A DNA stretch of 64,000 bases from Carcharhinus amblyrhynchos (lineage: Eukaryota): contig OZ336885.1 in NCBI GenBank assembly GCA_965287045.1, positions 65,782,001-65,846,000 on the forward strand, in the 5' to 3' direction. The translations under genes were made by a program, and so were the position numbers. Within the stretch, counting starts at the first letter, position 1, and the number at the start of each line of letters is the position of its first letter. Under the pieces are notes generated by a model that searched no databases, had not been told where the DNA came from, and saw only the letters and a program-made list of their open reading frames with translations. Below are positions 4,802 through 57,469 of this stretch, one piece after another.

Positions 4802-4885
4802 ATGCAGCTTATGAGCGGCTGCTTCTTGCGATTGGCTAACGTTTCTGCTGTTCTTGCTGTATCATTGATGGTTTGATCACTTATG
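4802..4885 (+). pseudogene. Degenerate signal-peptide exon of micro-exon gene copy A (frameshifts and TAA)
   Basis: Starts ATGCAGCTT, identical to the 45943 start. Hydrophobic pieces RLLLAI and VSAVLAVSL lie in different frames. Ends ATC ACT TAT G|gtaacg, like ATT ACA TAT TCG G|gt (34534) and CTG ACA TAT CAA G|gt (46012). No clear acceptor. Confidence 0.35.
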
Positions 4886-5332
4886 GTAACGTGGATGCAA
4901 ACAGTCACTAAATACACCATATGAAGGGTGTTGCAATTCAATATACAGTTCGATATGGTGCAGTCAGAACATGAGATGCATGCAATTCCGAACCCGACAG
5001 GCACTTCAAAAGTCAGATTTCAGTTGCATTGACGTACAATCCGCTGCAAAAGTTTCATGGATCCTACACCGAAGAAGTTAAAAAGGTCTAAGACTTTGGC
5101 GATTGTAAAGCAATTATGGTTACCAATGAGTTCGGTGATAATTCATGTATACGCAGCAACATTATTTTTGGCAGCCTCGGATTGGGAGACGACTGCAATC
5201 TCAGTTGTGGATGCTGACTGACCCTTCTTATATCATAGGAGAGACGCTGAGGCGGCAACTAATGTTAAAATACTCACAAATGCAGTTCAAAGTTGTGGGT
5301 TTTTGCGATCAGTATTAAATATTCTTTTACAG

Positions 5333-5359
5333 ATCTTCAGGAACTTCTGCAGAAGACCA
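5333..5359 (+). CDS. 27-nt phase 1-1 micro-exon, (D)LQELLQKT
   Basis: ttcttttacag|ATCTTCAGGAACTTCTGCAGAAGACCA|gtaagc; paralogue at 52819-52845. Confidence 0.8.
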
Positions 5360-6363
5360 GTAAGCATACAGCGTTATTCATCAACACGTCTTGAATGATT
5401 TTAGTATTTGGAGGAAAATGGTGACAAATAAAATTATTAAAAGTGTATCACTTACTTTTTGACGATGGCCATGCCGTTATTGTTTAAGATTTTTTTTATA
5501 TCAAGGAGCCGTCCTTTGACTCCGCAACCGTTGGCGAATTGAGCATTAATTAGTTCAGCTCAGAATTCATTAATATTATTCGTGAGCATAGATATTGTGG
5601 ACAATAGGGATACTTGATAGTTATATAGATGATCTCACTTATGTAAAGTTCAAAAAAAAACGCCGAACCGATACTTTGCGATAAAATAAAAGAACGTCCC
5701 CCAAGTTTAGGCAACTTTTTTTTTCTCTTTGAGCCAAATTTTCATGACTGTCTTACAGAGTGGCAGATAACCGTACAGAGTATCCTCCGCCAGAATGACG
5801 TAACTCTAATACCGCCACTATTGAAGGAAGGCTAATGGAGTTACTTTGATATTTTTGTGTTATGTTTACTGGTTCTAATTTTTACAAATATAACAATTCG
5901 GAACGAAAACAGCATTGATATTATAAAGAACTTTAAGGACAGTATCTAAATAATGCAACATTGAAAAGAAACATGGAAAGGCAGATATGCTCAGCGTACG
6001 AAAACAAAAGTTTTGACACTGGTGTCAGAATCTTGAATTCTGCAATGAAAAGCACTTGGAAAATAACATTCAGCTTCTGCAGGTAAGTTTATGGAAGTTT
6101 ACTTAATTATTTACGAAATCTTTTTTTAAAAGACTGATGTGCGATCAAATTCACAATTGCATTTGTTTTGTTTTGCAGTGTTTTTTTGATCAAGTTAACA
6201 CTTGAATTGGAAAAAAAAACAGATCCACAGAAGTGTTAGCAGTGCTTATGACATAATTTCATGGAGACTGTTGCGAGTACAATGTTTGTTATGCTAATTT
6301 GTGGTAAACATCTGCCGGCATTCACGATATTACCTCATTTTCTCGATTTGACCTGTTTTTCAG

Positions 6364-6390
6364 TGGGCACACTATTTGAAAAGGAGAATG
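6364..6390 (+). CDS. 27-nt phase 1-1 micro-exon, (M)GTLFEKEN
   Basis: cctgtttttcag|TGGGCACACTATTTGAAAAGGAGAATG|gtatga. Confidence 0.7.
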
Positions 6391-7237
6391 GTATGAAGCC
6401 CCCAGCAACACAAATGAAATGCTGAATTTCCTGCTCAACGCCTGTATGGTAGAATAACGATCCAGTGGACGACAGCATGACTGTAACATCCGATGGCTGA
6501 GTCAAATTTCGATCGATCAGCAGGAACTGGAATGTATTGCCACAATATTGTTTACCCCTGTCGCCTGCGCAGCATAAAATATTTCAGAGTTAAAATTGTA
6601 TGCATAGCTGGTCCCCTTGTGTCACGAAATACAAACAATTGCAGCTCGCCAGAAACTTGTGAAGTCCATGTTATGGATTTTCACATAATTTGAAATATAT
6701 TTCAAAATATATGTAATGCTATACATAACGTACTCTGTGAAAGAAACGTTCCATGATAGCATTACGCAAATAATTGAGTTCAAATTGTACTTTGGCGTAC
6801 ACAAAAGCAGTATGCAAACCGGTACTAAATTAAGAATAAAATCGTCCGGTATAGCCCTGAAGAACGAAATGTGTTTTAATCTTGATGAACTCAAGTTTAT
6901 TTATTTTGTAAAACAAATAGTCTGCTGCGTTTCATTCTGCTCGGATTTTTCTCAAATTGTAACAGTAGGTAGCAGATGGTGTTCCAGAGATAAAGGGAGA
7001 AAGTTATTTTTTTCGTCTAAACAGTGAATGTTAACCGCTGAGAGTGATAATATTTGTGTACGTGTAACGACCAGTGCCTTCGGCGTACACAGGAAAGAAG
7101 AGAAAATAAAATCGCATTTCTCCTCCATACTAACATACCGAAGTTCTAGAAGAAATAACGTGCTATTAGTTGCATCATCAATGTAATTTGAGAATGAGAA
7201 CAATAATGTGACCGGGCAAAAATATTCTTTTTTTCAG

Positions 7238-7273
7238 AACTGAGGAAGTGCGAGCTGGAGCGTGAGGCAAATG
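7238..7273 (+). CDS. 36-nt (or 24-nt, ending 7261) phase 1-1 micro-exon, (E)LRKCELEREAN
   Basis: Acceptor tcttttttttcag|AACTGAGGA...; two in-phase donors (C|gtgagg at 7261, G|gttcgg at 7273); first 9 nt identical to the 36-nt exon at 27248. Confidence 0.6.
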
Positions 7274-8176: not shown

Positions 8177-8203
8177 AAGAAGCAAAAGGAAAGTGGGCGA
8201 ATG
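8177..8203 (+). CDS. 27-nt phase 1-1 micro-exon, (E)EAKGKWAN
   Basis: ttttgttcacag|AAGAAGCAAAAGGAAAGTGGGCGAATG|gtagtt. Confidence 0.7.
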
Positions 8204-9371
8204 GTAGTTTTTTTTGTTTAATTGAATGACTCATTTTTTTCAGCATGTGCAAAATACCTAAATTTGCAGGAATCTGGTTGAATTATGAAGAACGTAGAAA
8301 ATGGAAACAACACATGCAGTATCTCACAAGCCCTTTCATATCGCTCTTTCTGAGTCCTTATGGGGTGACAATACATTTCCCCCCTCACATTGTAATATCA
8401 GCAGCGTATTGAAGTTCGAAGTGTATTGGCAACGCACTTGAAGGTGCTGACATTAAGTGGAAATTCCATCGAGTTTTGGATTACTCTGCAAGTCCCACGA
8501 CACTTTATAATAAACTATCATTGATTAGCAGGTTCAGCAAATTTCATGGGAAAAATAATGCATTGTGTATAAAATGCACGAAAAATACATAATTGCTTTT
8601 CAAAATGTATTTTCTCCAGGGTGATGACCCAATCTGAAACAATCGATTATTTGGAAAAGAAAACTAAACAAATTTCTTGCATGAGGGAATAATTCATGAA
8701 TATGATAATACCCCGGAATACCTTCTGGAATCCGATGCACTGGGACTTTCCACATGAGTTGGTTTCATTCTGCACATCAGGTCGATTTGTACAATCGCCT
8801 TCCATTTAGTGTAATAATCTGGTCAAAGGTAGAATCTGGAACGCCATTATTTCAAGCCAAGCGTTTCCTGGAACGTTGCCCACCGAAAGAAATTATATTG
8901 CTTATTGCCACCGGTCGTGTGACCTCAACTTCCTCTTGAAAAAATAAATGCTGAAAAAAAACGCCAAGGGAAGCAACATTAAGTAATATGCTTGAGGACT
9001 GAATAACCATCACAGATAATGATCTATGGTGCCTTTACAGAGCGATCTCTGTGTGTCCTAATATACGTACCTGTAAGTCTGGAACTGTAACAATTGAAGA
9101 GGGAACTCAAACGACACCAAATTACCTGTTGCCGTTGCATCTGTCCACTGAAGTATCTGTATGACCGATCATCTTACACTCAATTGCGGACAAAATATCG
9201 TGACAACATACACTCTGATATTGTGCTTCATTTAGTGGGTCAACGGCATAAATGGGAAAATCTCTATACAGATCTCAATCTCAAGCTTGAACATCTGCGA
9301 AAAACTGTGTACCATCAGCAGAAAATTGTTCTCCAACCACAATCTATTGTACCCGAAGCATTCTGGTACCA

Positions 9372-13988: not shown

Positions 13989-16981
13989 GTTCCTCACCAC
14001 ATTATTCTGAGCTCCACCAAGCGACTGTAGCCACACCATTTGCGTGCAGTTTCATTATGTGCCCTTTGAATGTTTTAGGGACCTGATCAGAAAACCCAAG
14101 AAAAATGAAGTTAGACTCGACCATAATATTATTTTTAATATTTTGGCTTTTGGGTCAGGACACGTTATCGAATCACGGTGTGATTCGCTTGGCACATCTT
14201 TGTTCCAAACGAACATTAATTTAGCATGTTGTCTAACTATAGCGAATTAATTAGCATCAAGGCTACCAATCTAAGTGCTTAAACATGATAAGATGCAATT
14301 CTTAAGCACTAACACATCGCCATTAGTTTTAATTTAAGGGATATTCCTCCTAGGATTAAACTCGCGTGCAGCATCAATTAGCAAACAGAGGGGTCACTTT
14401 TGTTTTCCTTTCGCCTTTCGTGATAAGTGACATATTTCTGCCTGTCACACAACCCAAATCTATCTTCTGTTGCGAAGGGTAAAGCTCAAAATAATTTACT
14501 GCGTCTCATTGACATAACATGTTATTCCAACTTCGTTGGTGAATTCATGTGTCGGCTCTGAATCTACAACATGGCTACACACAGATATCTTGGCAGAGAT
14601 AGAAGCAAGATTGGCATTTGGGCTATCACCATTGCTGAGAATATTGTTTTAGGGATATTTCTTTTTTTTTATTTTCATACAATCATGAGTATATTGAACA
14701 CAAACAACGATCCATGTTCTTTTTTGGGGTCTTCATACCTGTACGAGTTTTTATTTTAGACTCCTGTTCCAGCTGTTCATTTGGATTATGTCCATTTCAT
14801 TATGCTGTCTCAGTTCCTCTTGTCATCCCGTGGATTATTTTGTAGCAGGACGGCACTTCAGCAACACTATTAACATTTGTCGCAAATGTCGCATTCTCTA
14901 CATATTTTCATAACTTTTCAGACACAACGTTTTGATATATTTAGCATAATGTCCGAATGACTTTCTGGTTGATATAGACTTTTTCAAAAGAATGACCTCG
15001 GCCATTGATCAGTGCAGGGACTTTAGGAATATCAAGACTTCACCTGCATTTATAACGTTGTATTAATGTATATTTTCATTGGGTTTTTCTCCCACTTAGT
15101 TAAAAAATCATAATTCCCTAATCCCCATTTTTTTTCTGGTTGTATCTTAGCTTGCAATAATTTCTTCTCAATTCTCAGATGGCAAGCCACTGCAAATCAT
15201 ATCAAATTAAATGTTTTTTGCTTCACATTGGCATTTCTTACCGCAACAGATCAACGGATTTGGGCTCTGACGCTTCCAATCTTTTCTGTCTCTTTCATCC
15301 CTCCCCCGCCCCCCAAACATCTCTCACCCTCTCCCTCTGCGTTGCCTCCTTGAGAACCAGCTGCCGCATCCCATAGCCAGTCGTACCCGCATGCCGCATC
15401 CCACACCAGGTATTTCCCTCTGTCTGCGTTTTAACTCCATGAGTCTCGCTGTATCGCCATCCCAGACTCTCATGACTGTCTTTCCCCATCCCTCATGCCC
15501 GATTTTGAACTCGAGGTTTTATTTCTAGCGCTATGTCCTTTCTTTCTCCGGAATACCCCTTCATGCCAATCTCCCTTTCGTTTTCTGATTGCCTTCGATA
15601 CATGACAATGTGGTGCTCTCACTTTTCTTGGATGCTTTCCTAGCGGAAAGTTCTTTCTCTTCTTTTTTCCTGGCAAAGTGTTCTGTGGACCTTTTCACAC
15701 ACGTTCATTCGTATTAAACAACCCAACTCTTCACATCTTCTCCCACCATGCACCCTATTTCGTCCACAGTTCAGAGCACGTGGCGTATGTAAAAAAGTGT
15801 TCCATCTTTTTGGGACACGTATTTTTCTTTTTCATTACACCTGTTCTCCACAAACACTCAATGTGATACAGGCGAGTAAGCTTACAGCACTGAAGGCCTG
15901 TCTGGTGCTTCTCTAACTAATTGAGGTGGTCAATATAAACACATAGGCACCCCAAATTATGAGTCTTGACGTGTTGCCAGCAGACAATGATGTTATCCTT
16001 CTCACAGCGCCAAAAGATGTTGATGGATGTTTTCCTCTCGAAGCTATTTATTGCTAAACTTAAGTTTAAGTTAAACTCAAGAAACACAACGTGCTGAATT
16101 TATGACGTGACTTCATTTAATCAAACAATCAAATGGGATAATGGCATTCGTTAGCCCAACACTCAATTGTAGAATGAGCGAAGCCCACTGTTACTCTGAA
16201 GAAGCATGCCCCCATGAAGGCAAGTATGCATTTACGAAATAATATTGGTCACGTTTCAGCAGGGCATTATCGAATAAGAGTATATTAAATCAGTCAATAA
16301 TCTCACTGTCATTCACGGCAGCCAATGACGAATCACATCTTGACCTCACACACGTTAACTCTCTGAGTATGGACAGGTAGTTGTGATAATGTTTCCTAAC
16401 TATTTGAAATGACTTGACGCTCGTCCGACCCTGAGAAATAACTTATGGCTACCTCGCATTCCTGTTATCAGCACGGAGCTGCATAGCTCTATTCGTAAAA
16501 TTGGCATCGGTTGCCAGTTTGTTCCCGACAACTGCTGCTAATGTAGCATTCATTCAGTAGAAATATCCTTCTCTGAAACGCGGGCTATCATCTGCCTCAT
16601 CTATCCACTGGATTTTTCCATTGGCTGAATCTTTTGCAAAATGTAATGAAAAACAAATTGCATCCAGTTTATTAATCCAAAATATATGTTTTAAATAAGA
16701 AATACGCGTTATTCATATAGAGCTGTCTTCCTGAACTACAACAAAACTTTCAGCGTTCATCATAGCCTAAGATTATTCAATGTTAAGCCAGTTTTGTATC
16801 AGTCTTTCGAAACCATGGATCTGTGTTTTATTAAACTAAATAGCTCCCGTATCTCAGCTATTAAAAAAATGTATTCCAATTTCTGAATTCCTCGACATTA
16901 GTCGCTTAAATTGAATGAAAAAAGAAACAATTCAGAACAAGTTATATCGTTATATCACTCTTGTAACACTAACACATCTAT

Positions 16982-17691
16982 TGAAGGGAAAGGGTTAATG
17001 AATTTAACGCATTTTCTACCCAGCATATATCACAAACATAACAATTCCTCATGACTGAACTTCTTAAAGTTATACTGCTCCTGGAATCAATATAAATTAT
17101 TTATTCATGTTTCCCATACTTTTTCATATATTTTGTTCTTTACCTTTCATTCCTATAAAGACAGATAGCCAAATATGAATGATATTTATCAGACATTCCA
17201 AACCTTACCTGTTTGTGCTAACTGAATATCTTTTAAAAAGCTGCAGCTGGTAGGTTATGATACCGGCTCACAATTGCATCTGGAAGATTGCGATACTAAC
17301 TTTTTAACAGGAAGAGTCCTGCTGGGACAGCCGCAACTGCTCGAGTAAGTTCAAGATAAGAGATGCCGAAGCCGACAGACGTGTTGTGGGTCGTGATTGG
17401 ACAGAAGATTATATCGTGACTGCAGCTGCCAGATGGAATGTGAGTCCTCGTTTAATCAGAAGTTTGCATTGTTACCAAATTTGGAAGACCTGCGTTCCTA
17501 AATGGAATCGAGACTTTGCATCGTGATTGATGCTGGGACTCATGATGTACAAATATGCACTTGTATTTGTGTGCAATGAGAAGCCCGGTAAACCACTGTT
17601 AGGACCAGGTTTCTCAAAAAAAACTTTTGAAATAAACACTTACTGTGTTTTGTTTCACTAACAGTCTCAGAAATGTTTTTTTAACTAGAAC
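16982..17691 (+). repeat. 5' LTR of the ERV
   Basis: Colinear with 24710-25317; AATAAA near 17631; 3' boundary approximate. Confidence 0.85.
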
Positions 17692-20950: not shown

Positions 20951-22967
20951 AAAATTTTGAGACAAAGCGACTATTTTCTCAACTTGCTAGGGAAATATTA
21001 TAAATTAAGCAGCAAGTTGGAAATTTGATTAGAGGGTATCTAATGTTGACCTAATACTTTGAGTGTTTTTTTTTGTATTTCAATGTATTTGTTTGGTCTG
21101 GTTACTCGTCAAACGCAGGTGATTGTTATTGTATTAGATCGAGAGCAGGAGTTGTTAAAGCATTGTGTTCTTATGGAGTATTGATTGCGGCAATAAATAC
21201 AATGTGTTATGCTTTGGATTAACTTCAAAGGGGCTGAGGTAGTGTTAAAACTGTTAGAACTTAAGTACAAGATTTCTTGAATTTACTTCTGTTTTCCAAT
21301 TAAATTACAGTTTGAAAGAAAGAAGTGTGAAGACGACTGTCTTAATCTTTTCTTTTTTAAAAAAAGTTTCTTTGAATGTATTAGAATGTTGGATTTGAGA
21401 AAAAGATAATGTGGGATGCATGTTGGAAGCTTCCATGGTGTCTGTGTGTGTTTAATAACGTGGTTGTGTGTTTTTTTTGTTGGCTTTATTTCTTTTTAAT
21501 GTTCTTCCCCTAATTATGATTTCACAACAGTGGGTCTGATACAGAGTTAAATAAAAATTGGAAAGTAAACTGAAATTTCAAGTCTAAAGTAAATAAACTG
21601 AAGTTTGCAACAATTATTTGGATGTTAAATAATACTGGGTTCAAAGTTTGTTAAGAAAGTATTTAAAACTTGACAGCCACCATGTGCTCCTTCCTTTGTC
21701 TTGAAAATAAAAAAAGAGACTAAATTAATTAATTTTAATCATGAATAACAAGTCTAGTAGTTTCAAGACTCCGAGCTCATTTATCAGTACGTAGTGATAA
21801 TTGAGAGTTGTAGACTTTGGCTTATTCAGATTTTCTCATTAATAACTTTCGAATTAAAGGGATTAGTTGTGCTTAAGTGTTACAGTTTCTGACATTTAAT
21901 TAATAGAATAAATTGAGCGCACAAAATAACAAACTTATAAGTTTAATTTTGACAAACAAAGGGTGATGAAAACAGAGTCTGCATGGGTTTTGTGTTTCAT
22001 CGAGGGGTGCATTGAAACATACTCTCACTTTATGATGTAACCATCCGGATGTGACATAATTTTACAAAACACTATCTGTTTGTATTGTTACTTTCCTATA
22101 CTGAGTAAATGTTACCTGTGGCAATCCTCATGTTGACATGTAAAGTTTGTTCGGTTCAAGGCGTGTAAACGCTAATAAATTGAGAGTTATTTTTCCTGAA
22201 AAGCTAAGGGCTCTGGTGAGTTTCAATGACTTTGCAACAGACGACAGGATGTTTCTTCATACTTAATTATTCGAGGTTACAAGATATAAAACGCTTGAAA
22301 GGGGACAAATAAGCTATTTGTGCGAATCATGATGTTTGTCAATGAATGGCAAAGTGGATGGAATAGTTCATTAAGTGGTAGAGAATAGTTTGAATTACGT
22401 TTAAATTATACTTTGGTTACATTGTGTTAATTGGTTCATAGACGAACGTAGTATGTGTGTGAAAGAAGGTGATAAATTTTGAGCGGTGAAAGTGGAAACT
22501 TAAATCTAAAATGGTAACTGTGACAAAAGGTGCTTATTATGCAAACTGGGATCATTTTTAAATAACAAATACCGTGGAGAATTAAACATACCTTTTCAGA
22601 AATTTTGGGTGCATGAACCCCCGAAAACTCAAATAGAAACGTTATTTCCGTTTGCTTCTATATCAATGATTTATTATTGTCTTGTGCGTCGCTGATAACT
22701 TAAAATGGTATTTAGGATATGTGATTACTTGTATTTGTAGCGTGTTGTTGTCTGTAACTTCTGAAATGTCAATATGGTATAGGAATGCATTGTCATTGTG
22801 CATGCCAATTCCTGGACCTCACTTGACTGGTGGGTGACTGAGGAATTCCTGACAGACACTGGTCCAGATTTTGCGATTCATCACACTTCGCGTTCAGAAT
22901 CAAAGAAACAACTGTGGTCAAACAGGCCATCTAAAATGGCGATTTCTAAAGCACTCTGGGACAATTG

Positions 22968-24150
22968 AACATAAGAAATAGGAGCAGGAGTAGGCCATCT
23001 GGCCCTTCGAGCCTGCCCCGCCATTCAATAAGATCATGGCTGATCTGTCGTAGCTCAATTCCACATTCCCACCCTCTCCCCATAACCCTCAATCCCCTCG
23101 CTTATCAAAAACCCATCAACCCGCGTCTTAAAAATATTTAGCGAGGCAGCCTCCGCCACCTCAACGGGCAGAGAATTCCAGAGATTCACCACCCTTTGAG
23201 TGAAGAAGTTCCTCCTCAACTCCGTTCTAAACCGCCCCTCCTTTATCTTGAGGCTGTGCCCCCTAGTCCTATTGTCCTTTCTGAGCGGGAAGAGTCTCTC
23301 CACCTCTATCCTATCCATCCCATTCATCATCTTATATGTCTCAATGAGGTCTCCCCTCATTCCTCTAAACTCTAACGAGTACGAGCCTAGTTTATTCAGC
23401 TTCTCCTCATAGCTCAAGCCCCTCAACTCCGGTATCAGCCTAGCAAACCACCTCTGCACTCCCTCCAATGCCAAAATATCCTTGCGTAAGTACGGCGACC
23501 AAAACTGCACATAGTACTCCAGCTGCGGCCTCACCAATGCCCTATACAGCCGCAGCAAGACCTCCCTGCTTTTATATTCAATCCCCCTCGCTATGAAGGC
23601 CAGCAACCCATTCGCCTTCCTGACCACCTGCTGCACCTGCAAGCTGGGTTTTTGCGACTCATGCACAAGGACCCCGAGGTCCCTCTGCACCGTCGCCTGC
23701 TGCAGTTTTTCGCCACGTAAGAAATAGTCCTTCCTACCATTCTTCCTACCAAAGTGGACCACCTCGCACTTGCCAACATTAAATTCCATTTGCCATTTCC
23801 TGGCCCATTTGCCCAGCCTATCTAGATCCTTCTGCAGACTCTCCACACCCTCCGCGCAATTTGCCGTTCCCCCAACCTTGGTGTCATCAGCAAATTTCGA
23901 CACCATACACTCGGTTCCCTCCTCCAGATCATCTATATAAATGGGAAATAGCTGAGGCCCCAGCACCGACCCCTGCGGCACTCCACTAGTCACCAACCGC
24001 CAATCCGAATAGCACCCATTAACCCCCACTCTCTGCCTCCTATTTGACCACCAATCCTCTATCCACGCTAACACCCTACCCCCAACCCCATGCCCCCTGA
24101 CCTTCTGCAATAACCTCTTGTGAGGTACCTTGTCAAACGCCTTCTGAAAA
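22968..24150 (-). mobile_element. Young 5'-truncated CR1 LINE nested inside the ERV
   Basis: 3' UTR 'aacataagaaataggagcaggagtaggcc' at the left end; uninterrupted RT ORF. Confidence 0.95.
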
Positions 24151-24158
24151 TTTGGCAA
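23055..24158 (-). CDS. CR1 ORF2 reverse transcriptase C-terminal part (367 aa open, 5'-truncated, not autonomous)
   Basis: FQKAFDKVPH, SGVPQGSVLGP, KFADDTK, WQMEFNVGKC, TRGH and FFTQRVV motifs. Confidence 0.9.
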   Translation of the reverse strand: MPNFQKAFDKVPHKRLLQKVRGHGVGGRVLAWIEDWWSNRRQRVGVNGCYSDWRLVTSGVPQGSVLGPQLFPIYIDDLEEGTECMVSKFADDTKVGGTANCAEGVESLQKDLDRLGKWARKWQMEFNVGKCEVVHFGRKNGRKDYFLRGEKLQQATVQRDLGVLVHESQKPSLQVQQVVRKANGLLAFIARGIEYKSREVLLRLYRALVRPQLEYYVQFWSPYLRKDILALEGVQRWFARLIPELRGLSYEEKLNKLGSYSLEFRGMRGDLIETYKMMNGMDRIEVERLFPLRKDNRTRGHSLKIKEGRFRTELRRNFFTQRVVNLWNSLPVEVAEAASLNIFKTRVDGFLISEGIEGYGERVGMWN

Positions 24159-24709
24159 GAATTAAAATGGCAAGCTGTAGTTTGAAGACGGAGACAAACA
24201 CGCTGCAAACCTGACGAAGGATCAAGTCCTGATTGATTAATTGGCAATGGCCAGAAGTTGCTTGAAACCCGACGAGTAATACCTTTCTCTGACCCCACAA
24301 ACGAGCTACAACAATGGTGACCATCACGAGCGACGAGCAACATGAGGAAAACCACCAAATCTGTGAAGGAAGGAAGGAAGAAAAGAGCCAGAGTGTCAGG
24401 CCAAACCAAAGAACTAGACTGTGCAGAGGATGACCAAGACCAACATACGGATAAAGGCCAGTGTTTGAGTGCTTGCCAGTCATGCAGGGTCAAATCAAGG
24501 TTTCATATTGGACTTGAACTTTAATGTTTTCCTGTAAGATACCTTATTGTTGGTTGATTGAGTGATCATTGAATTTTGTTGGCATAAATTACACCAAGTT
24601 GTCCTTTGTTTTTTTTTTAACTGCAGGTAGATCCACAGGCTGGTAACATTTGGCTCTGAATTGGTCATGGGGCCAAGCTTGGGCCTGGCCCTGACCATAA
24701 AGGGGGGAT

Positions 24710-27247: not shown

Positions 27248-27283
27248 AACTGAGGACCATCAAAGGGAAATTGAAAGATGCAG
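27248..27283 (+). CDS. 36-nt phase 1-1 micro-exon, (E)LRTIKGKLKDA
   Basis: gtgatttcag|AACTGAGGACCATCAAAGGGAAATTGAAAGATGCAG|gtaaga. Confidence 0.78.
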
Positions 27284-27514: not shown

Positions 27515-27541
27515 AGAACAAGCTTGACGAATCACAGACAG
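27515..27541 (+). CDS. 27-nt phase 1-1 micro-exon, (E)NKLDESQT
   Basis: tttctgctttaaaag|AGAACAAGCTTGACGAATCACAGACAG|gtaaac. Confidence 0.65.
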
Positions 27542-27797: not shown

Positions 27798-27824
27798 AAG
27801 ACAAAGAAAGGTAGAACCGGGACA
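27798..27824 (+). pseudogene. 27-nt micro-exon with in-frame TAG, (E)DKER*NRD
   Basis: ctctcaattgcag|AAGACAAAGAAAGGTAGAACCGGGACA|gtgagt; correct size and strong splice sites but a stop in phase 1. Confidence 0.55.
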
Positions 27825-30554: not shown

Positions 30555-30581
30555 ATACAATAAGCTACGAACAGTTTGCAG
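30555..30581 (+). CDS. 27-nt phase 1-1 micro-exon, (D)TISYEQFA
   Basis: tgtctcttttgcag|ATACAATAAGCTACGAACAGTTTGCAG|gtacaa. Confidence 0.7.
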
Positions 30582-32479
30582 GTACAAATGCACTAATATA
30601 TGGCTTCTTCAACCCAATGTATATCAAAGAAGCGTACCCCCACGTCCATGCCAAAATTATGTTGGGTTGCTTCATCTGAGGCAGTATAAATTGTTGTGCT
30701 GTTATGAGATATACATTGTGGCAAGTATGCGATTACATGATGGATGATGATTAATCTTAGATGTCGTAAATCAAAGTTGTTTTTTCAGCATTATTGTATG
30801 ACGTTGGCAAACAAAAAAAAACACACTCACAAAAAATAATGCATTCGAAATCTGTAAACATAACCCCTGACAGTTGAAAGCCAAATCTTCAACACCAATG
30901 AGAGATTACAGCTTTTTTTTTACTTGCAGACAAAGAAGAGTTCTTACAGTGGAAAATGGTGTTATTACTAGATTGCGGGAAATGTATTTGGTTTGGTGGT
31001 TTCGGAAAAAAAAATACTTTTGAAGGCCCCATTTGCTGCCACCGCTTCGTTTGATTGCCATTTTATCTCCGATGTTCACTTCGGACTCGGAAACTTAAAA
31101 AATGATCTATTTTCTGCCGTTTCTCCTCAAATGTGTATGTGTCACGCCCATTCTCGGATCCATGAAATTGCCTTCCGATTCTTTGGAAGTGGCAACAGTT
31201 ATCGATGTGTGTCAATGTATTATGTCAAACTACTATCAGATCGCCCTCTGATGATGCTATATTTTCTGCATCAGAACTAGATAAGACGATCCTCGGCAAC
31301 ATCTGTTTTAATTATGTGGAATTCCGAACTATCATTTTGGATTGCCTGATCGAATGCCACCTTTTTGTAATTGTGCGTCCAGAACAAACAAATACGCAGT
31401 GCAGGCCCTTGCAATCTTCTGAAGCCATTTCATTTATTTTCCCAAAACCAAAGTGAAATGTTATCATAGAGCGACTGTGTTTTCCTTTTTGAGTGAGAGG
31501 TTTATTTTTCGCGATTGAATGGCATGAAACGATTGTTTTTTTTTAAATGGACCATCACTGCTAACTATTCAGCACCTACAATCCGGTCAAAACCACTGAT
31601 ATTTCAATTGCAGTCAATGAAAATGAAGACCATGCCAGGATTTCGACAAGTGTCTCGACTTGTTCCGGTGTTTACCTTTCATGAAACAGCAGTTGAATCA
31701 CTTTCGACTTACACCTAATTTGTTTTCTCTTTTTTTTTAATGTATGTGCTTTGCTTTACGTTAGTAACAACTGAAGATTAATTCAAATGAGTTATTAATT
31801 TTGAAAAGATGCTGAGTTCATATCACTGCAATTGATTATCAACTGCCAGGGCCATAGTTGTGTTCTTGCCATTTTACATCATTGTCCTTCAGGTCAAATC
31901 CATCCATCAACTTAGTTAACTATTGATATTTAAATATATTTCAAAATAAATTCGAAGACACCAAATATGCGTTTTAATTTCCTTGATAGAAAATCGCAGA
32001 CTGAGAGATGACCTGAAAAATAAAGGTCAGCTACATTCATTATTGTTCAGAATTAGTTGTTGTGCCACAGTTCGTTGCTTGTATGTATAAATTAGAACAG
32101 AGGGGAGAATTCCATTAACTGTAGGAAACTGCCTATTCTAACATAAACACAACTGAAAATGGAGAATAACACAAATAATGCATATTGGATGCTCAATTGT
32201 CGCAAAATATACCGAATTGTAACCAAAAACCACTTTTCCAGCTTTGTGAAACCACAACTGTACTTTGTCCTGGAAAGACCATGTTCTTGATTAGATACAG
32301 GATGTAAAATTGTGAAACTATTTAGCAGGTTAATGCCACATAAAATGATTGTCGTGCTGACTCAAAAGTTATTTGGTTGAATGATAATAGAAGTAGCAAC
32401 TTCATTATGAAAAAACAAAATAACTGTTGCAACATACTGTTGACTTCTTGGAAATATGCCGTTTTATAAGTTTTATTTA

Positions 32480-34300: not shown

Positions 34301-34460
34301 TTCTATGATATTACTTGTGTGTCTCGAGAACTGAAAGTTTACAGCCAGTGTGCCTGCAATTTTCATTGTAAATTATTTTAATATCTTTGGAAGCAGGTCA
34401 TCTAGTCAGGTCGCCTTGTCTATTCAACAATTTGTATTGATCACTTTGAAACAATTTTAG

Positions 34461-34534
34461 GCATGGAGTTTCCTCGCCTACTGTAGTGGCGTTTGCAGTC
34501 TTCGCATTAGTTCTGTTTGGAATTACATATTCGG
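34461..34534 (+). pseudogene. Signal-peptide exon of micro-exon gene copy C, 1 nt short (restored: MEFPRLLVVAFAVFALVLFGITYS)
   Basis: ttttag|GC ATG GAG TTT ... ACA TAT TCG G|gtattt mirrors ag|GC ATG CAG CTT ... ACA TAT CAA G|gt at 45941. It is 74 nt; adding one base at ~34482 restores the frame and a hydrophobic signal peptide. Confidence 0.65.
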
Positions 34535-40547: not shown

Positions 40548-40574
40548 AAAAAATGCTCAACGTGAAAGATGAAG
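40548..40574 (+). CDS. 27-nt phase 1-1 micro-exon, (E)KMLNVKDE
   Basis: tttcattgatttcag|AAAAAATGCTCAACGTGAAAGATGAAG|gtacta; resembles the 49097 exon, and both are the first clear micro-exon after a signal exon. Confidence 0.68.
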
Positions 40575-41807: not shown

Positions 41808-42882
41808 TTACTCGGACTGTCATGTATCCTTTTTATCTGTCATGCTGTTTACCGTAAAGCGCCAGTGTATTTATCTGTTAAGCCATTCATTTCACAGGAA
41901 AATAGGCAGTACGATGAATTATGCCACTTACCCTTTAGAATACAGCACGTGTTTGTTGTATCCGCATCGTTGCTGATTTTCATTGTTCCAGCAGACATGT
42001 CTCTTCTTATGGGTCGTTTTCTTCTTAAGTCAGTCGAAATCTGCATGGTATGGATAATTCAAATCGAAGTCACACGAATAGACCATAGATATGTAGCATT
42101 ATACCATTTGGTTTTGAAATCTACTCCCATTGCAATTCTCTTCTCTTTGACCCTGCATGTAAAATAATATTGTGCAGATTATTTGGTTGTAGCAATGCAT
42201 TTTATTGAGTGCAGACGCTGTATTTAGATCAAGTGAAAACCAAATTTTGTTCGTCAACCTACTGGAGGCAGACATTTGGGGCTATCCGACTAACAGATAC
42301 TTCCCAAAGTTTACACAATGAAAAGTACATGAGTGAGGGTTCTTTGTATGTAGACGTATCCTTATTGAAACTAATGGCCAGAAGGGACTCATCAAAGGGT
42401 AAAGCAGCTCTGACAAACAACAGAATCAAAAATAGATCAATTAGAACATTTTAATCAATCATTCCCACCTTTCAGTGACATGAAATCAGTTATCTTCAAA
42501 ATACTCAAATCTACATTAATAATTCTGAAATACTTTGGCCGATCATATTCCACTCCCCAACATATTGCCAATTTATTAGTCCATGAAACGCGGACGCCTT
42601 GGCTTAAATCGCTCAGTCTAGACTTCAAATACAATTTCTCACAATGTTTCTTAATTGTAACTTCCTTAGTAGACTAACTCATGAAACTACACCTGGACAC
42701 CAGTCCATCTCGTTCGGACAGTAAATAAACAAAATCATGAAATATGATGAAGTGTTCTAAACATTCATTCCAGACAAAATATTAGCTGATAAAACTTCCA
42801 TACTTGAAATGCCACATCTTGAAATGTGGCATAATCCTAATGTATCTTTTAGCTGTGATTCTGAGCAGTAAACTGTTTTTGC

Positions 42883-43012
42883 NNNNNNNNNNNNNNNNNN
42901 NNNNNNNNNNNNNNNNNNNNNNNNNNNNNNNNNNNNNNNNNNNNNNNNNNNNNNNNNNNNNNNNNNNNNNNNNNNNNNNNNNNNNNNNNNNNNNNNNNNN
43001 NNNNNNNNNNNN
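42883..43012. other. Assembly gap (130 N)
   Basis: N run. Confidence 1.
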
Positions 43013-43186
43013 CAATTACATTCACTCGTTTGAATCAATTTCCGCATTTAATATGTATAAATTGTTTCTTGTTAGGTAATATACATTTTAACATCAATTT
43101 AACCGAATGCTGCAGCTAATAAGAAGCAATTTATACATATTAAATGCGGAAATTGATTCAAACGAGTGAATGTAATTGTAAAATGC

Positions 43187-43261
<75 letters not shown>
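43187..43261. repeat. (GATA)n microsatellite
   Basis: Directly visible. Confidence 0.97.
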
Positions 43262-43932
43262 TGTAGGTCTGCACATTTTGGGCAAAAACAGTTTACTGCT
43301 CAGAATCACAGCTGTCAGAGCCTTAATGTCTACTGGTTTAAAAATGTGACCCCATTCTGGGTTCTTCTTAGAATTCCTCCTTCAGGCCATTGGCTAATGC
43401 AATACTATGCAGGCAACAAAAAGGTAGCTAATATTCGAAAAGTGTGTGTGCTACTGACTCATTTCTTCTTTAACTTGATTGTCATTACAAAAATTGCAGT
43501 ACAATCATTGCATCGATTAGTACCAAATAAAATGAGGAAAAGTAGTGTAGTCTCCTGAACGCGAATAAATTTATTTACAAGAGCACATATTCTCATAAAC
43601 TGGAGGAAGATTTCGAAATGAAGACTTTCTATTTCTAAAACGGGGGCAATAAATATTGGGTTAAAATTGACAGAAACGTCAAACGTCATCAATCTGATTT
43701 ACGTCTGTTGCAACGGTCCCAAAACATCTAATTTTCAGTAGAAGCCGTCACGTCTTGACGACTACCAATGAAAAGCATGCATGGATGCTGCCTGGGCGTT
43801 CATCATTGGTTTACTCCGTCGATTTAGTTCTGGTTGCTTAGTTGATGACGATGTTCACTGAGGGTACGTTTCGGCGATTATGATGTTACATAACTAGCTC
43901 GATTATTTTTGTCTTTGACATTTGCATTTCAG

Positions 43933-43968
43933 AGATGAACGCACTAAAATCGCTGTTAGGAGATCGTG
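43933..43968 (+). CDS. 36-nt phase 1-1 micro-exon, (E)MNALKSLLGDR
   Basis: tttgcatttcag|AGATGAACGCACTAAAATCGCTGTTAGGAGATCGTG|gtatga. Confidence 0.75.
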
Positions 43969-45940: not shown

Positions 45941-46012
45941 GCATGCAGCTTGTTTTGCTTTTGATTGCCGTCTTCGGGTCTGCACAGTTACTTTATGCGC
46001 TGACATATCAAG
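45941..46012 (+). CDS. Signal-peptide exon of micro-exon gene copy D: MQLVLLLIAVFGSAQLLYA-LTYQ (ATG at 45943)
   Basis: cttaatcttccacag|GC ATG...CAA G|gtacat; hydrophobic h-region with a small residue (A) at a plausible -1 position; phase-1 donor matches the micro-exons. Confidence 0.8.
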
Positions 46013-47609: not shown

Positions 47610-48712
47610 TTATTTCTTTATTGATGCAATAAGTGGGCTTATGATAAAACTGCAGTGAAGTTACGGTGAAAATTTCCTGGTCGCCACACTCGGACAATTT
47701 TTCAGGTACACTGCCGGAGAAATCAGCTTGCCAAATATACCTAACCAGAACATCTTTCAGACTCTTAGGGGAACATAAGAAGATAAGAAATAGGAGCAGG
47801 AGTAGGCCATCCAGCCCTTCGAGCCTGCCCCGCCATTCAATAAGATCATGGCTGATCTGTCGTGGCTCAGTTCCACTTTCCCGCCCTCTCCCCATAACCC
47901 TTAATCGCCTCTCTTATCAAAAACCCATCAACCCGCGTCTTAAAAATATTTAGCGAGGCAGCCTCCACCACTTCAACGGGCAGAGAATTCCAGAGATTCA
48001 CCACCCTTTGAGTGAAGAAGTTCCTCCTCAACTCCGTTCTAAACCCCCCCCCCCCCCCCCCCTTTATCTTGAGGCTGTGCCCCCTAGTCTTACTGTCTTT
48101 TTTGAGCGGGAAGAGTCTCTCCACCTCTATCCTATCCATCCCATTTATCATCTTATACATCTCAATGAGATCAAGCCTAGTTTATTCAGCCTCTCCTCAT
48201 AGCTCAACCCCCTCAACTCTGGTATCAGCCTCGTAAACCTCCTCTGCACTCCCTCCAAGGCCAAAATATCTTTGCGCAGGTGCGGCGTCCAAAACTGCAC
48301 ACACTACTCCAGCTGCTGCCTCACCAATGCCCTATACAGCCGCAGCAAGACCTCCCTACTTTTATATTCAACCCCCCTCGCTATGAAGGCCAGCATCCCA
48401 TTCGCCTTCCTGACCACCTGCTGCACCTGCAAGCTGGGTTTTTGCGACTCATGCACAAGGACCCCGTGGTCCCTCTGCGCCGTCGCCTGCTGCAGTTTTT
48501 CGCCACGTAAGTAATAGTCCTTCCTACCATTATTCCTACCAAAGTGGACCACCTCACACTTGCCCTACCAAAGTGGACCACCTCACACTTGCACACAAAC
48601 GCACACAAACCTGGGGAGAACGTGCCAACTCGGCACAGACTGTGATCCAAGCCAGCAATCCAATCCGGGTGCCCATTGCTATTGGACAGCAGTGCTAACG
48701 ACTGTGGCCCCT
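47610..48712 (-). mobile_element. HE1-like SINE split in two (47610-47771 and 48593-48712) by a CR1 insertion
   Basis: Left 'gaagttacggtgaaaatttcctggtcgccacactc...cctaaccagaacatctttcagact' continues on the right as 'ggggagaacgtgccaactcggcacagactgtgatccaagcc...cagcagtgctaacgactgtg'. Confidence 0.8.
47772..48592 (-). mobile_element. Young 5'-truncated CR1, same subfamily as 22968-24150
   Basis: Near-identical to the 22968 copy by eye; ORFs 47867-48160 and 48304-48552. Confidence 0.95.
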
Positions 48713-49096: not shown

Positions 49097-49123
49097 ATGA
49101 AAGGCTGAAGAAAAGAGACGAAG
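49097..49123 (+). CDS. 27-nt phase 1-1 micro-exon, (D)ERLKKRDE
   Basis: ttaatacag|ATGAAAGGCTGAAGAAAAGAGACGAAG|gtaaga; contains a dibasic KR. Confidence 0.78.
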
Positions 49124-50090: not shown

Positions 50091-50126
50091 TTGGGGACCC
50101 CACTGGCAGCGGAAAATCCAACGATG
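50091..50126 (+). CDS. 36-nt phase 1-1 micro-exon, (V)GDPTGSGKSND
   Basis: ttcttccctttctgaag|TTGGGGACCCCACTGGCAGCGGAAAATCCAACGATG|gtaact. Confidence 0.72.
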
Positions 50127-51758: not shown

Positions 51759-51782
51759 AAACATTTATTGTCAACATGTCTG
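51759..51782 (+). CDS. 24-nt phase 1-1 micro-exon, (E)TFIVNMS
   Basis: tttcctattcaaag|AAACATTTATTGTCAACATGTCTG|gtatgt. Confidence 0.5.
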
Positions 51783-52818: not shown

Positions 52819-52845
52819 ATCTTCAGATGCTGCTGGAGAAAACAA
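52819..52845 (+). CDS. 27-nt phase 1-1 micro-exon, (D)LQMLLEKT
   Basis: attatttttag|ATCTTCAGATGCTGCTGGAGAAAACAA|gtaagt; paralogue of 5333-5359. Confidence 0.82.
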
Positions 52846-52936
52846 GTAAGTGCTGACAAACTCGGAAAATTGAACAGCTAATATCAGTGTAGTTGATGGA
52901 TTCAGTTTAAAATGATTTTACTATGCATACCCAACA

Positions 52937-53518
52937 TTAAGAATGTAAGAACTAGGAGCAAGTGTAGGTCATCTGGTCATCTGTCTTGTCATCAATAAGA
53001 TCATGGGTGATCTCGTTTTGGTTTCAGCTCCACTTACCCGCCCGGTCACCATAACCCTTAATTCCTTTACTATTCAAAACCTTGTCTATTCTTCCCATAA
53101 AAACAAATCAACGAGGTAGTCTCAACTGCTTCACTGGGCATGGAATTCCACAAGTGAACATATCTTTGTGTGAAGAAATCCCTCCTCAACTAAGTCCTAA
53201 ATCAAATTCCCCTTATTTTAAGGCTATGCCCCCCGATTCTTATTGCACCCGCCAGTGGAAACAACTTCCCTGTTTCTCTCCTATTTATCCTATCCATTTA
53301 TTTCATAATCTTATACGTTTCCATACGATCTGGCCTCATTTATTTCTGACTGCCAATGAGTATAGCCCCAGGCTACTCAGTCTCTCCTCTTGAGATAACC
53401 TTCTCAACTCCGGAATCAACCTAGTGAAATTCCTCTGCACCGCCACCGCCCCCCCCCCCCCCCCTCCCCCAGTGCCAATATATATTTTCTCAAGTCATGA
53501 GACCAAAACTGTAAACAA
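52937..53518 (-). mobile_element. CR1 3' fragment
   Basis: 'taagaactaggagcaagtgtaggtcatc...gtgtgaagaaatccctcctc...gaccaaaactg'. Confidence 0.9.
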
Positions 53519-53519
53519 C

Positions 53520-54350
53520 AGTATGGTAGAAGTAATAGTAGGAGGGATTATGTTTTAAAAGGCGAAAATCTGCAGCATGGTACAGTGCAGAGGGACCCGG
53601 GGATCCTTGTGCACGAATCGCAAAAACCCAGTCTGCAGGTGCAGCAGATGATCAAGAAGGCGAATTAAATGTTGGCCTTTATCGCGAGGGGATAGACTAT
53701 AAAAATAGGGACGTCTTGCTGCAACTTTACAAGGCACTGGTGAGGCCGCAACTGGAGTACTGTGTGCAGTTTTGGTCCTTGCATTTGTGACAGGATATAG
53801 CGGCCTTGGAGGGTGTACAGAGAAGGTTCACCAGGCTGATACCGGAGACGAGGGGGTTAGCTTATGAAGAGAGATTGAATAGGTTGGGTCTTTACTCGTT
53901 AGAGTTTAAAAGGCTGAGGGAGGATCTTATGGAGACTTACAAGATAATGAAGGGTAATTACAGGATAATTATCTTCAAGATAATGAAGATAATGATAGGG
54001 TAGAGGTAGAGAGAATCTTCCAGCCTAGAAAGGATAGCAAAACTAGGGGGCACAGCCTCAAAATGAGGGGGTGGGTGGTTGGGGAAGTTTAGAACGGAGT
54101 TGAGGAGGAACTTCTTCACTCAAATGGTGGTGAATCTCTAGCATTCTCTTCCCATTGACCTGGTGGAGGCTACCTCGCTGAATATATTTAAGTCACGGGT
54201 AGATAGACTTGTGATAGACAAGGGAATTAAGAGTTATGGGGAGAAAGCTGGAAAGTGGAACTGATGCACTTCAGATCAGCCATGAATTTATTGAATGGCG
54301 GGGCAGGCTGAAAGGGCTACTCCTACTCCTATTTCGTATGTTCTTATGTA
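53520..54350 (+). mobile_element. CR1 3' fragment, head-to-head with the previous element
   Basis: EGVQRRFTRLIP and TRGH motifs; tail gtatgttcttatgt. Confidence 0.92.
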
Positions 54351-55057
54351 TTTTAACCTGGTATTGGGAGACGTCTTACTGTAATGAAAAAGGCAACGAA
54401 CAGTGCGGGTCTGTGAGTGCTTGAAGGCACCTTCTAATATGAATGTAAATATTGTAAAACCAATATCGTCTCAACAGGATAGATCAGCGAATACAACATT
54501 GATTGAGAAACAAAAGCTCGCAAACTCAGCTAAATTCTTCATCGGATTATAATGTGTGGCTAATCTCAGGCCAGTACTAAGTTTAGTGATACGAATTCAA
54601 CAGAGATCACATAAAGATTACACTTTTAAAGGAGATAAGTTTCAGCAGCAGCTGAATTAATGACGATGATAAGCATGTGTCACTAGAAGCATTAGTCTTT
54701 ATCAAATTACGTCCCCACTTTGAGATCACCTGGTGAAGCGAAAAAAGAAAGACTCCTCGAGCAGGGCGATGTAGTCAGAATCTACACGATTTAATTGAAG
54801 CGCGTTCCTTCTTCTCCGAGGCAGAAACTTCCGAATATGAGTGGACGAAAATTGACACTAAATTCTGGTAACACAATGTAATGCATATGGTTTGATGTTT
54901 TTCACCATGCATGCATATTTTTACATGGCCGCAGATGGGGTGGTGCAGAAATTGAAATGAGGCTAATATAGTTATAATCTCTTTGCGATTCGATTAAGCA
55001 CAATTCCACTGCAGTTGATTGAAAATCTGAGATATGTGTATGTTTGATCTTTGACAA

Positions 55058-55140
<83 letters not shown>
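55058..55140. repeat. (GATA)n microsatellite
   Basis: Directly visible. Confidence 0.97.
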
Positions 55141-55339
55141 TTGGGAATAATAAGATAAGCATATTTCTGGTTGGTCATTGTTCGGTGCAGACACAAACAC
55201 ACCATAACCTTCTTCGTGGAAGGAGAGTTGGAAGAATAGAAGAGCGAAACGGGATATCCTTATAAATCTGTGTGTGATAAAAATGCACGGTTGAACTAGA
55301 CGGGGAATTGTGAACACGCTGAACCATCAAAAGGGGTTA

Positions 55340-55850
55340 TGTGGCGCACTGCTACGGATATTACAATGAGAAAGCACATTTTAGTCTCGATTAATCCAGA
55401 CTTTAATGCACCTAGTGCAGGCTCAATTATCCTGTCAACCGATCAGCAACTTGACTAATGGGTTCTGAAACGCCGTCTTCCCGGGATTCTATTGGCAGAA
55501 GGCAAAGGACAGGTGGAATAAGCATGAGGCCACAGCGGATAAAAAATCAGCATTTCTGGCACCTTGTGAGCGGAGATTCAAGACTGAGACGACTAAGACC
55601 AGGCGAGACCAGAGAAGGGGGAATGGAAGCAAGGATGAAACGGCGAGCGAGAATCAAATTCATGAAGACCAACCAGAAGGACTCTAGGAGCGGATCTGGG
55701 ACCTATGAAAACATAATGTTGGGTAGCATAAATTAGTTTCCTGTTTACTGAGTGGGCGATTTACCGGTTAACTACATATAATAAAGTTTGTAGCATTATG
55801 TCTGTGCTCGTACGTTTTTATTCTCATAAGTAAAAGCACGTGGGTAAAAC
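55340..55850 (+). mobile_element. Putative solo LTR (family unknown)
   Basis: TG start, purine-rich middle, AATAAA near 55780 followed by a U5-like T-rich tail; no partner LTR in the window. Confidence 0.35.
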
Positions 55851-56599
55851 GCTGATTGAGAAACTGGTAGAAATTGTTGGTTCAATAAATGTTGCGTTAT
55901 TTCCATAGTGCAAACTCTGTTTGAGAAAGAGAAAGGTCAGTCTTTGTTCACCCTGTGGTAATTGATTATTTTTTTCAGTCGCACGAGAATGTTATAACTA
56001 TTGTCTTCATCTTATTCACGTTTTCATCTGTAATTTCAACGATTGTTAAAATCCCGTATACGTTGCAGGGATATGTTCAGCAGGGGAAAATAGAATGGAA
56101 GAGCATGTCAGTGTGCATGAAACCCACAATGTTATCTGTCCATATCAATTGGATAATTCTGAAATGCGTTTTGTTTCAAGTTAGCGCATCCCAACAAACT
56201 TGATACCCTGGTCCTGGAGGTCGATCTGCTCGTCAAACAGATGTATGAACATTGATACATAAGTCAAAGCGTATAAATACGTTTTCCTGAGAACAGGAAC
56301 TCTTTTCCTGAGAATAGGAGACACGTTTCCTATTCGGTTTTCCTATTTTATCAAATATGTAAAATCCGGGCTCCTTTTGCAAGGAAGCGAAAACCTGTCT
56401 CACGTTATCGCTGTAAGTGAGATGAAAATTCTTTCCTCAAACTGCCATTCGCTTTTTTGGAAGTTTTCCCTGCAGTCTGCAGTGGGGACTTGTTTCCTGA
56501 ATGCATTGATGGGTGAAAAAAGTTAACATTACATGTTTCAGCAAACGTGGTTTTGGAAGCAGGCCAAATGCAAATGCTTATAACACTGCAGACCGTATT

Positions 56600-57130
56600 T
56601 ACTAACAGTGAGAGAATTAAGGGTTCAATAATTATTGTTTTAAGGTGTTACGACTACAATGTTGTTCTTCAGAAGTTTTACAGATATACCATATACGACA
56701 TTGTTTCTGGTTGTATCAGAGCTTGGTATGATTCCTGCCCTGCCAAAAACCGCAAGAAACGACAAATGATCGTGAATGTAGCCCAGTTTATCATGCAAAC
56801 CAGCCCCCTATCCATTAACACTTTCTACGTGTCCCGCTGCCTCAAAAAAAAGGCCAGCATAATTTACGAACCGATGCACACTGGACATGTTTTTTTTTAC
56901 CTCCTTCTTCCGTCGGAAAACAGAACATATACAAACCCTGAAGTCTCAAGAATTGCTTCTTCGCTGCTGCTATCAGACATTTGAATGGACTTACTTCGTA
57001 CTAATTTGATATTTTTCTACAACCTAGCTATGCAGGTTCTCTTCTCTCTCTATGAAAAGTATGTTTTGTCCGTATAGCATACAAAAACAATACAATTCAC
57101 AATAGACGGATAGATGCGACAATAATAAAT
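56600..57130 (+). mobile_element. Rex1/Babar-like LINE 3' fragment
   Basis: Translation FYRYTIYDIVSGCIRAWY...NRKKRQMIVNVAQ...SRCLKKKASII...HTGH..F.LLPS resembles the Rex1 ORF C-terminus. Confidence 0.8.
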
Positions 57131-57445
57131 CAGATCAAATCAAAACATATCCTTTCATGAGCGGTAAGAGGCTGTCAGATATTTCTGTTAGACCTTGTCA
57201 TATGTCAACCCACTACATAAGTTGTTGGAGCATGGTCCAAATAAAATAAATTTGCCTAAAAAAAACTTCGTGAATACAGCCTGTGAAATTTCTACTCATA
57301 CAATAACTTTGTAAACACACCTGGATTTAACAGTATAAAGCTACAAATTCTACTTGACGTGCGCTTTCAGCTGTGCTTTGGAGACAAGCATTTCAACCAT
57401 ATCCAACGAAAATACACAAATCACCAATTTGGTATTCAATTACAG

Positions 57446-57469
57446 AACTAAAAGCACTCAGGGACAAGG
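57446..57469 (+). CDS. 24-nt phase 1-1 micro-exon, (K/E)LKALRDK
   Basis: tattcaattacag|AACTAAAAGCACTCAGGGACAAGG|gtaaga; AACT start like the 7238 and 27248 exons. Confidence 0.7.

Follow-up and report, generated by a model that had tools for sequence, protein, structure and literature searches.

We analysed a 64,000-nucleotide (nt) stretch of DNA of Carcharhinus amblyrhynchos (the window; C16:65782001–65846000, C16 being the contig that carries it in a genome of 2.92 Gb) and read it, with a probability of about 0.58, as holding the first (5′) coding exons of a single giant gene of cartilaginous fishes, whose product would be a secreted coiled-coil rod with a carboxy-terminal B30.2 head. The window lies in an array of symmetric phase-1 micro-exons on the plus strand, which ends at one B30.2 exon, has collinear paralogs on the same contig and belongs to a family delimited in a tree of B30.2 domains. 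A preceding sequence-only reading had proposed three to four tandem genes for short secreted peptides, a model that gives way to an array of ~750 kb with a B30.2 end, its ordered duplication as a unit and its matches to proteins combining a coil with a B30.2. Positions outside the window are given as extended coordinates, that is, window numbering carried beyond its ends.

A plus-strand micro-exon array ending in one B30.2 exon

The scan took in 300 kb of left flank and 700 kb of right flank, using an exon model trained on 74 exons at 364–648 kb, outside the window, with a score of at least 7 counted as a pass; splice scores derive from approximate matrices, not from MaxEntScan. An excess of 27- and 36-nt phase-1 exons was found on the plus strand only, with its limits at about −104 kb and +648 kb; past the right end of the window it occupies C16:65.846–66.430 Mb. 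Outside the training region (−105 to +364 kb) the model made 93 calls on the plus strand, 77 of them 27 or 36 nt long, versus 9 calls with one such on the minus strand. Stops in phase 1 were present in 21 of the 193 plus-strand candidates selected by splice score alone, whereas phases 0 and 2 were interrupted in 107 and 90; for the 38 minus-strand candidates the numbers in the same phase order (1, 0, 2) were 15, 16 and 11. The called exons encode 19% K, 16% L, 11% E and 0.4% P; at 77–153 kb they follow a repeating 36-27-27-27 order with two Cys, and beyond 360 kb they are mostly arranged as 36+27, equal to 21 amino acids (aa) or three heptads. Downstream of 46012 the plus strand has 124 calls with a cut-off of 10, against 1 on the minus strand, and 154 with a cut-off of 6, against 8, so that the predicted coil amounts to 1,276–1,578 aa. 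About a dozen coil-like phase-1 exons of 21 nt, each a single heptad, lie further upstream on the plus strand at −249 to −124 kb (L047–L059), and no Ig was found in the scanned open reading frames (ORFs) near them. Outside the window, from −150 to +645 kb, 207 of the 208 non-repeat plus-strand ORFs of at least 100 aa were scanned and showed no RING, B-box or Ig domain; the set excluded low-complexity ORFs and those lying >30% in high-copy repeats, and ORFs were cut at 10-kb borders.

The array terminates in a phase-1 B30.2/SPRY exon of 515 nt on the plus strand (C16:66436397–66436911 = L091:397–911; 654.4 kb extended; PF00622, E 2.1e-12), located 6.7 kb past the last micro-exon and 609 kb downstream of 45941, with an AATAAA ~450 nt past its stop. 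It is the sole B30.2 in the 1.06 Mb scanned. Its predicted model (pLDDT 77, from a 10-row alignment) resembles the B30.2 folds of TRIM7, TRIM21 and BTN3 with a TM of about 0.7, and its top PDB sequence matches are to the BTN3A1 B30.2.

For the window itself, the sequence-only reading had listed 15 short plus-strand segments, and its description of them was accurate: all 15 have AG and GT ends, their lengths are 24, 27 or 36 nt, and phase 1 is open in 14, the exception being 27798 with a TAG. The plus-strand enrichment of lengths divisible by three that it had envisaged held in part only. AG..GT pairs of 15–60 nt showed no overall excess of such lengths (29/26/20 on the plus and 21/18/17 on the minus strand for remainders 0/2/1), the excess being limited to 27 and 36 nt on the plus strand, with 8 and 6 pairs versus a mean of 1.72 at other lengths; the minus strand has 1 and 2. 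Nor does the minus strand carry an equal density of exon candidates, as 14 distinct exons passed the model on the plus strand and none on the minus strand. We judge from these counts that the window micro-exons are more than chance.

Eleven of the 15 listed segments passed. These comprise coil micro-exons at 5333..5359 (27 nt, score 14.1, paralog of 52819), 7238..7273 (36 nt with an ambiguous donor giving a 24-nt alternative, scores 13.5 and 15.0), 27248..27283 (36 nt, 14.5), 40548..40574 (27 nt, 10.6), 43933..43968 (36 nt, 11.3), 49097..49123 (27 nt, 12.5), 52819..52845 (27 nt, 11.0) and 57446..57469 (24 nt, 17.3), along with 27-nt micro-exons at 8177..8203 (10.3), 27515..27541 (11.2) and 30555..30581 (7.9), all on the plus strand. 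The coil exon 6364..6390 (27 nt, score 5.4), which matches catshark XP_038672306, was kept despite its score because of its clear paralog 55909. Probable is also 50091..50126 (36 nt), a Gly/Ser linker-like exon that is not coil-like (coil model −0.8, generic splice scores 7.0/6.3) and finds a match of linker type in a relative from catshark (3/300 shuffles, best of 7 proteins). The two remaining segments fared worse: 27798..27824 (27 nt, 6.5) is exon-like with an in-frame TAG, and 51759..51782 (24 nt) is doubtful, with a coil-model score of −0.1 and no family match. Missing from the earlier list were the coil micro-exons 31990..32025 (36 nt, 14.4) and 55909..55935 (27 nt, 9.9), and possibly 22442; candidates at 31614 and 59317 scored below 0 and were dropped. 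A predicted intron (57470..64000) leaves the window at its right end.

Two pairs within the window are paralogous. Third codon positions account for 4 of 7 mismatches between 5333 and 52819 and for 6 of 8 between 6364 and 55909, counts that are supportive only, since the pairs were chosen by protein similarity and are hence biased to third-position differences. The introns around both pairs no longer align, and a genome search with their exon patterns returned just these two window pairs. A Pfam scan of all 134 plus-strand window ORFs of at least 66 aa revealed no RING, B-box or Ig domain, the matches being a LINE (long interspersed element) reverse transcriptase and two others below threshold.

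Collinear paralogs and a cartilaginous-fish family

The exons at 520–635 kb recur in the same order at two paralogs on C16, one at 63.736 Mb, 2 Mb away (score 358 versus a null maximum of 142), and one at 63.149 Mb (299 versus 182; 60 nulls each), the latter spanning about 490–520 kb. For the 63.736 paralog, sampled at 64.00–64.45 Mb by twelve sparse 10-kb tiles, 8 of 11 exons lie in order from 55909 to 322 kb (1/1000 shuffles), and with all tiles used 10 of 18 do so, reaching 27248 and −27.9 kb (1/1000 shuffles); the collinear counterparts of 55909 and 27248 are at C16:64.328 Mb and C16:64.362 Mb. Exon order is thus shared with this paralog from 55909 on, which means that a single duplication event copied the exons of the window along with the B30.2 exon.

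With 150 of 332 candidates scored, close B30.2 paralogs in the genome number five on C16 and one on C9, and the tree adds a further clade member at C9:103.96. The upstream sides of all six paralogs inspected carry sense-strand micro-exon calls, mostly of 27 or 36 nt (20 sense calls versus 1 at C16:60.449). If the proposal below is right, the family has at least 8 members in the genome, three of which span ~0.5 Mb or more. About 140 other B30.2 exons, with ~30% identity to that of the array, form dense clusters at C9 96–112 Mb and on C41, C46, C53 and C73.

Among 1.84 billion representatives, the closest single-domain matches were cartilaginous-fish proteins, plus two without names. In a 32-row tree, built from one search and midpoint-drawn, the relatives, the genome paralogs and the array exon form a B30.2 clade of 17 with support 100/100, and 15 canonical TRIM/butyrophilin-type rows fall outside it. 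The lineage restriction proposed by the sequence-only reading is in line with this result, as all named members of this well-supported clade seen here come from sharks, rays and chimaera. Members carry automatic names such as "TRIM69-like" (XP_055510696), "TRIM39-like" (XP_038668997, XP_038672306), "A33-like" (XP_069775384, XP_038671249), "TRIM58" (XP_042191566) and "nuclear-pore anchor-like" (XP_042192744). The TRIM-like names mislead, because the seven family proteins scanned contain SPRY with PRY below cut-off or absent, and none has RING, B-box or Ig. Signal-like hydrophobic starts and a B30.2 of this clade at the end are combined in the skate protein XP_055510696 (295 aa) and the chimaera protein XP_042192744 (1,697 aa).

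The coil is shared as well. The window runs 5333–7238 and 6364–7238 match the coil of catshark XP_038672306, and the run 52819–57446 that of XP_038671249 (each 0/1000 shuffles, best of 7); exon 27248 also matches XP_038672306 (0/300 shuffles). At the ortholog of XP_038668997, coil residues 136–185 align in order with four short exons before the B30.2. In the relatives, six pairs of RefSeq isoforms differ by 9, 18, 6, 9, 9 and 7+9 aa, chiefly in blocks of 9 aa; the exon skipping suggested by the sequence-only reading is a prediction for the present locus.

Database searches returned no 1:1 ortholog of the giant gene, the top single-domain identity being 48–52%. The B30.2 exon gave no matches in word-index searches of proteins; of the 9 proteins obtained by a profile search, P0170 belongs to the clade. 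Chordate SPRY clusters of the ESM Atlas serve as leads only: 1,579 aa (137 members, score 0.92), 1,277 aa (55 members, score 0.90) and an "isoform X51" cluster of 1,802 aa (79 members, score 0.79). No description of the clade was seen among the papers listed by a literature search that covered few subscription titles; shark genome supplements could list its genes. As far as these searches reach, the long SPRY architecture is present in databases as automatic models and is otherwise undescribed.

The proposed gene, its alternatives and its surroundings

Three signal-like exons were located on the plus strand of the window, of which only 45941..46012 is intact (72 nt, ATG at 45943, splice scores 9.9/5.9), the predicted first coding exon. 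Of the two others that the sequence-only reading had named, 4802..4885 is decayed as it had stated, with no AG ahead of the ATG and an in-frame stop, and 34461..34534, which it had taken as sound, is frameshifted (74 nt, the ATG frame meeting TAG at codon 8). The amino-terminal layout of 45941 resembles that of P0152 and P0030, with weak alignment scores of 26 and 21, and a whole-genome search with this exon gave the self-match only. The interval from 46 to 654 kb yielded no convincing signal exon, which leaves 45941 as the last convincing start ahead of the 124–154 micro-exons. A "signal" at 252.1 kb was rejected, being a micro-exon of the usual 27 nt whose acceptor is rich in T. A plus-strand segment of 62 nt at −41602 (L007), in which the ATG closely follows the acceptor and the peptide is first hydrophobic and then basic, is a possible further start.

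We propose that 45941 is spliced through ~125–155 symmetric 27/36-nt exons to the B30.2 exon, giving a gene of ~600 kb and a product of 1,500–1,800 aa consisting of a signal, a long parallel coil and a B30.2 head. Coiled coils rise 0.148 nm per residue, and the parallel oligomer may be ~190–230 nm long, with inter-chain disulfides possibly provided by the Cys repeats of the array. B30.2 is described as a ligand-binding module in PMC2657112. With two or more heads held on a long spacer, the rod would bind its ligands with avidity, and a role in innate defence, or in mucus or plasma, is the most plausible. As every exon is phase 1-1, any exon could be skipped in frame, and as a 36+27 pair encodes 21 aa or three heptads, paired skipping would alter length and preserve the register, so that the rod may be length-tuned. 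The exons upstream, at 5–44 kb and on to about −104 kb, are old repeats of the same modules with signal-like exons of their own, and probably belong to this locus as 5′ starts that are either alternative or in decay. Only tentatively do we extend this to a family of sharks, rays and chimaera, in which 500–750 kb genes with >100 interchangeable in-frame micro-exons, several alternative signal exons and one B30.2 head would encode secreted, length-tunable rods.

Splicing, transcript continuity and secretion are inferred from genomic sequence, and several observations weigh against this model. Exons run on upstream of 45941, both here and in the 63.736 paralog, so that 45941 need not be the true start, and there are weak signal-like candidates at 178.7, 188.1 and 198.4 kb. 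The 5′ part of the 63.149 paralog (exons to 63.64 Mb) scored at chance level (62 versus 48 ± 11), and no convincing signal exon was found at its sampled 5′ part or in the other paralog stretches sampled. A hydrophobic amino terminus is absent in 5 of the 7 family proteins, whose models may be incomplete; the B30.2 clade shows no enrichment of N-glycosylation sequons (19 in 16 domains, with 20.2 expected); and heptad periodicity of the predicted chain is only moderate, with a peak at 3.62 in the 3′ half and a top peak at 3.0 in the 5′ half.

Some of these points would also suit a single locus with a membrane-anchored or intracellular product, an unlikely reading in which the 72-nt exon is a signal anchor or internal membrane segment, the start lies further upstream, and coil and B30.2 are cytoplasmic, as in a butyrophilin/BG tail lacking Ig domains. 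The symmetry of the 72-nt exon itself (phase 1-1), the micro-exons reaching about −104 kb and the 21-nt heptad exons about −249 kb, with a paralog extending upstream too, the lack of sequon enrichment and the intracellular B30.2 of butyrophilins (PMC12841164) are in its favour. It fits less well with the position of the ATG, 2 nt past the acceptor in both 45941 and 34461, with the hydrophobic core of 45941, which has ~10 residues and gives way to a polar stretch of small residues, or with skate P0152, where such a hydrophobic stretch begins at residue 1; no Ig exon was seen among the results listed for the ORFs scanned from −300 kb on.

That the window instead holds several separate genes, its signal exons heading short secreted coil peptides without B30.2 and the B30.2 gene starting further downstream, is in our view quite improbable. 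Micro-exons follow each of the three signal-like exons, and 8620..8965 on the plus strand is a possible, uncertain terminal exon of an upstream unit, recognized by eye from an acceptor, an immediate phase-1 stop and an AATAAA near 8943; stop-bearing candidates at 157.9 and 207.9 kb and the shorter span of the 63.149 paralog point the same way. The lack of a convincing further signal exon before the B30.2 argues for one gene, as does the duplication of the whole stretch with the B30.2 in order, although the duplication of an entire cluster in one piece would look alike, and a long form is annotated elsewhere as the 1,697-aa chimaera protein. Very improbable is that in this species the locus has decayed to a pseudogene at its 5′ part, with no product made from it, as the two broken signal exons, the stop in 27798 and a 29-nt candidate at 30930 without a gap in a relative's contig might suggest, given that 45941 and the later window coil exons are all open with good splice sites and that third-position bias persists in the paralog pairs whose introns no longer align.

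Genomic contigs from four DNA runs cover window positions 27150–34650 and cross introns at 2–7% divergence, showing that the stretch is present elsewhere (rows listed: 40/697 substitutions, 12/51 indels, 15/30 joints). An explanation of the 30930 frameshift as a homopolymer assembly error was not supported, the X4 contig of a relative having 0 gaps at depth 2.

The window introns contain LINE (reverse transcriptase) fragments on both strands at 22958–24161, 37.3–39.7 kb, 47770–48600 and 52930–54350. Direct repeats at 16980–17685 and 24708–25309 (79–80% alike) flank decayed retroelement-like frames (17.3–21 kb) and a LINE piece, and the pair looks like an old long terminal repeat element. Inverted repeats at 42851–43313 (32 nt perfect; 63 nt at 97%) surround a 130-N stretch and an ATAG array, representing either a fold-back element or an assembly feature. 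Elsewhere in the array, a recent tandem duplication at 170–204 kb (L022–L026) carries near-identical 36-nt exons, and introns at 314–317 and 337–340 kb contain retrovirus-like ORFs with zinc knuckle, aspartyl protease and env-like parts (L037:624–3016, L039–L040). To the right of the B30.2 exon lie a single-exon seven-transmembrane receptor (L093:3291–4214, minus strand), a V-set Ig exon ~52 kb past the B30.2 (L096:2878–3399, plus strand) with a membrane-type exon at 711.7 kb, a DUF4430 exon (L097:7358–7636, minus strand) and a claudin/PMP22-type exon (L100:3006–3338, minus strand).

Comparison with known systems

The sequence-only reading had set aside butyrophilin and BG genes, whose heptad exons are 21 nt long, in favour of the schistosome micro-exon genes (MEGs). 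Heptad micro-exons followed by a B30.2 make the former the closer model, only the Ig domains being absent. The array shares with butyrophilin the order of heptad repeats and then B30.2, as described in PMC12841164, and chicken BG has a coiled-coil tail of heptads (PMC11835228). IgV/IgC domains are present in these proteins, whereas no Ig match occurred in the plus-strand ORFs of the window and array scanned or in the seven family proteins, so the locus is not a butyrophilin/BG member. The main exons here are 27 and 36 nt long, the exons number ~150, and the B30.2 forms a separate clade and is predicted to be extracellular; butyrophilin/BG proteins cross the membrane ahead of their heptads, a place at which 45941 could act either as a signal or as an anchor.

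Within the schistosome, MEGs combine a signal peptide with symmetric micro-exons that make up most of the coding sequence and can be skipped in frame (PMC4015677). In the single-gene model symmetric micro-exons would likewise predominate, with 124–154 exons of 24–36 nt versus one of 72 nt and one of 515 nt, and 45941 has the pattern of a signal peptide. MEGs are flatworm genes with small products, whereas the array is from a vertebrate, encodes a repeated coil plus a conserved globular domain and shows no sign of common descent with them. The likeness is one of exon layout only, given the B30.2 end and relatives of up to 1,697 aa, and among schistosome genes SmVAL6, with a domain plus micro-exons, is the nearer analogy (PMC4015677).

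TRIM proteins have RING and B-box, neither of which was found in the ORFs and family proteins scanned, and the B30.2 of the array is not of the canonical PRY-SPRY type. Ohanin and the vespryns are secreted, with a signal peptide, a B30.2 and a short propeptide, as opposed to the 1,300–1,600-aa rod predicted here. Ohanin is a snake venom protein (PMC8075977), and nothing here suggests venom. The closest system is the unnamed cartilaginous-fish clade of coil plus SPRY proteins, with which the array shares the B30.2 clade, the coil modules and the build from 27/36-nt phase-1 exons. Identity with SCPP genes was rejected on the ground that their introns are phase 0.

Of all living lineages whose adaptive immunity uses antibodies, the cartilaginous fishes are the oldest. 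If the proposed gene is real, they possess an unnamed gene family that gene finders have fragmented and labelled TRIM-like, and in which the B30.2, normally a cytosolic sensor, sits at the end of a ~200-nm secreted rod that can be lengthened or shortened by single exons. It would then constitute a vertebrate counterpart of schistosome micro-exon diversification in an extracellular B30.2 defence or mucus protein. On its sequence, the locus appears to be an extreme form of the coil-plus-B30.2 design known from butyrophilin tails and TRIM-like proteins.

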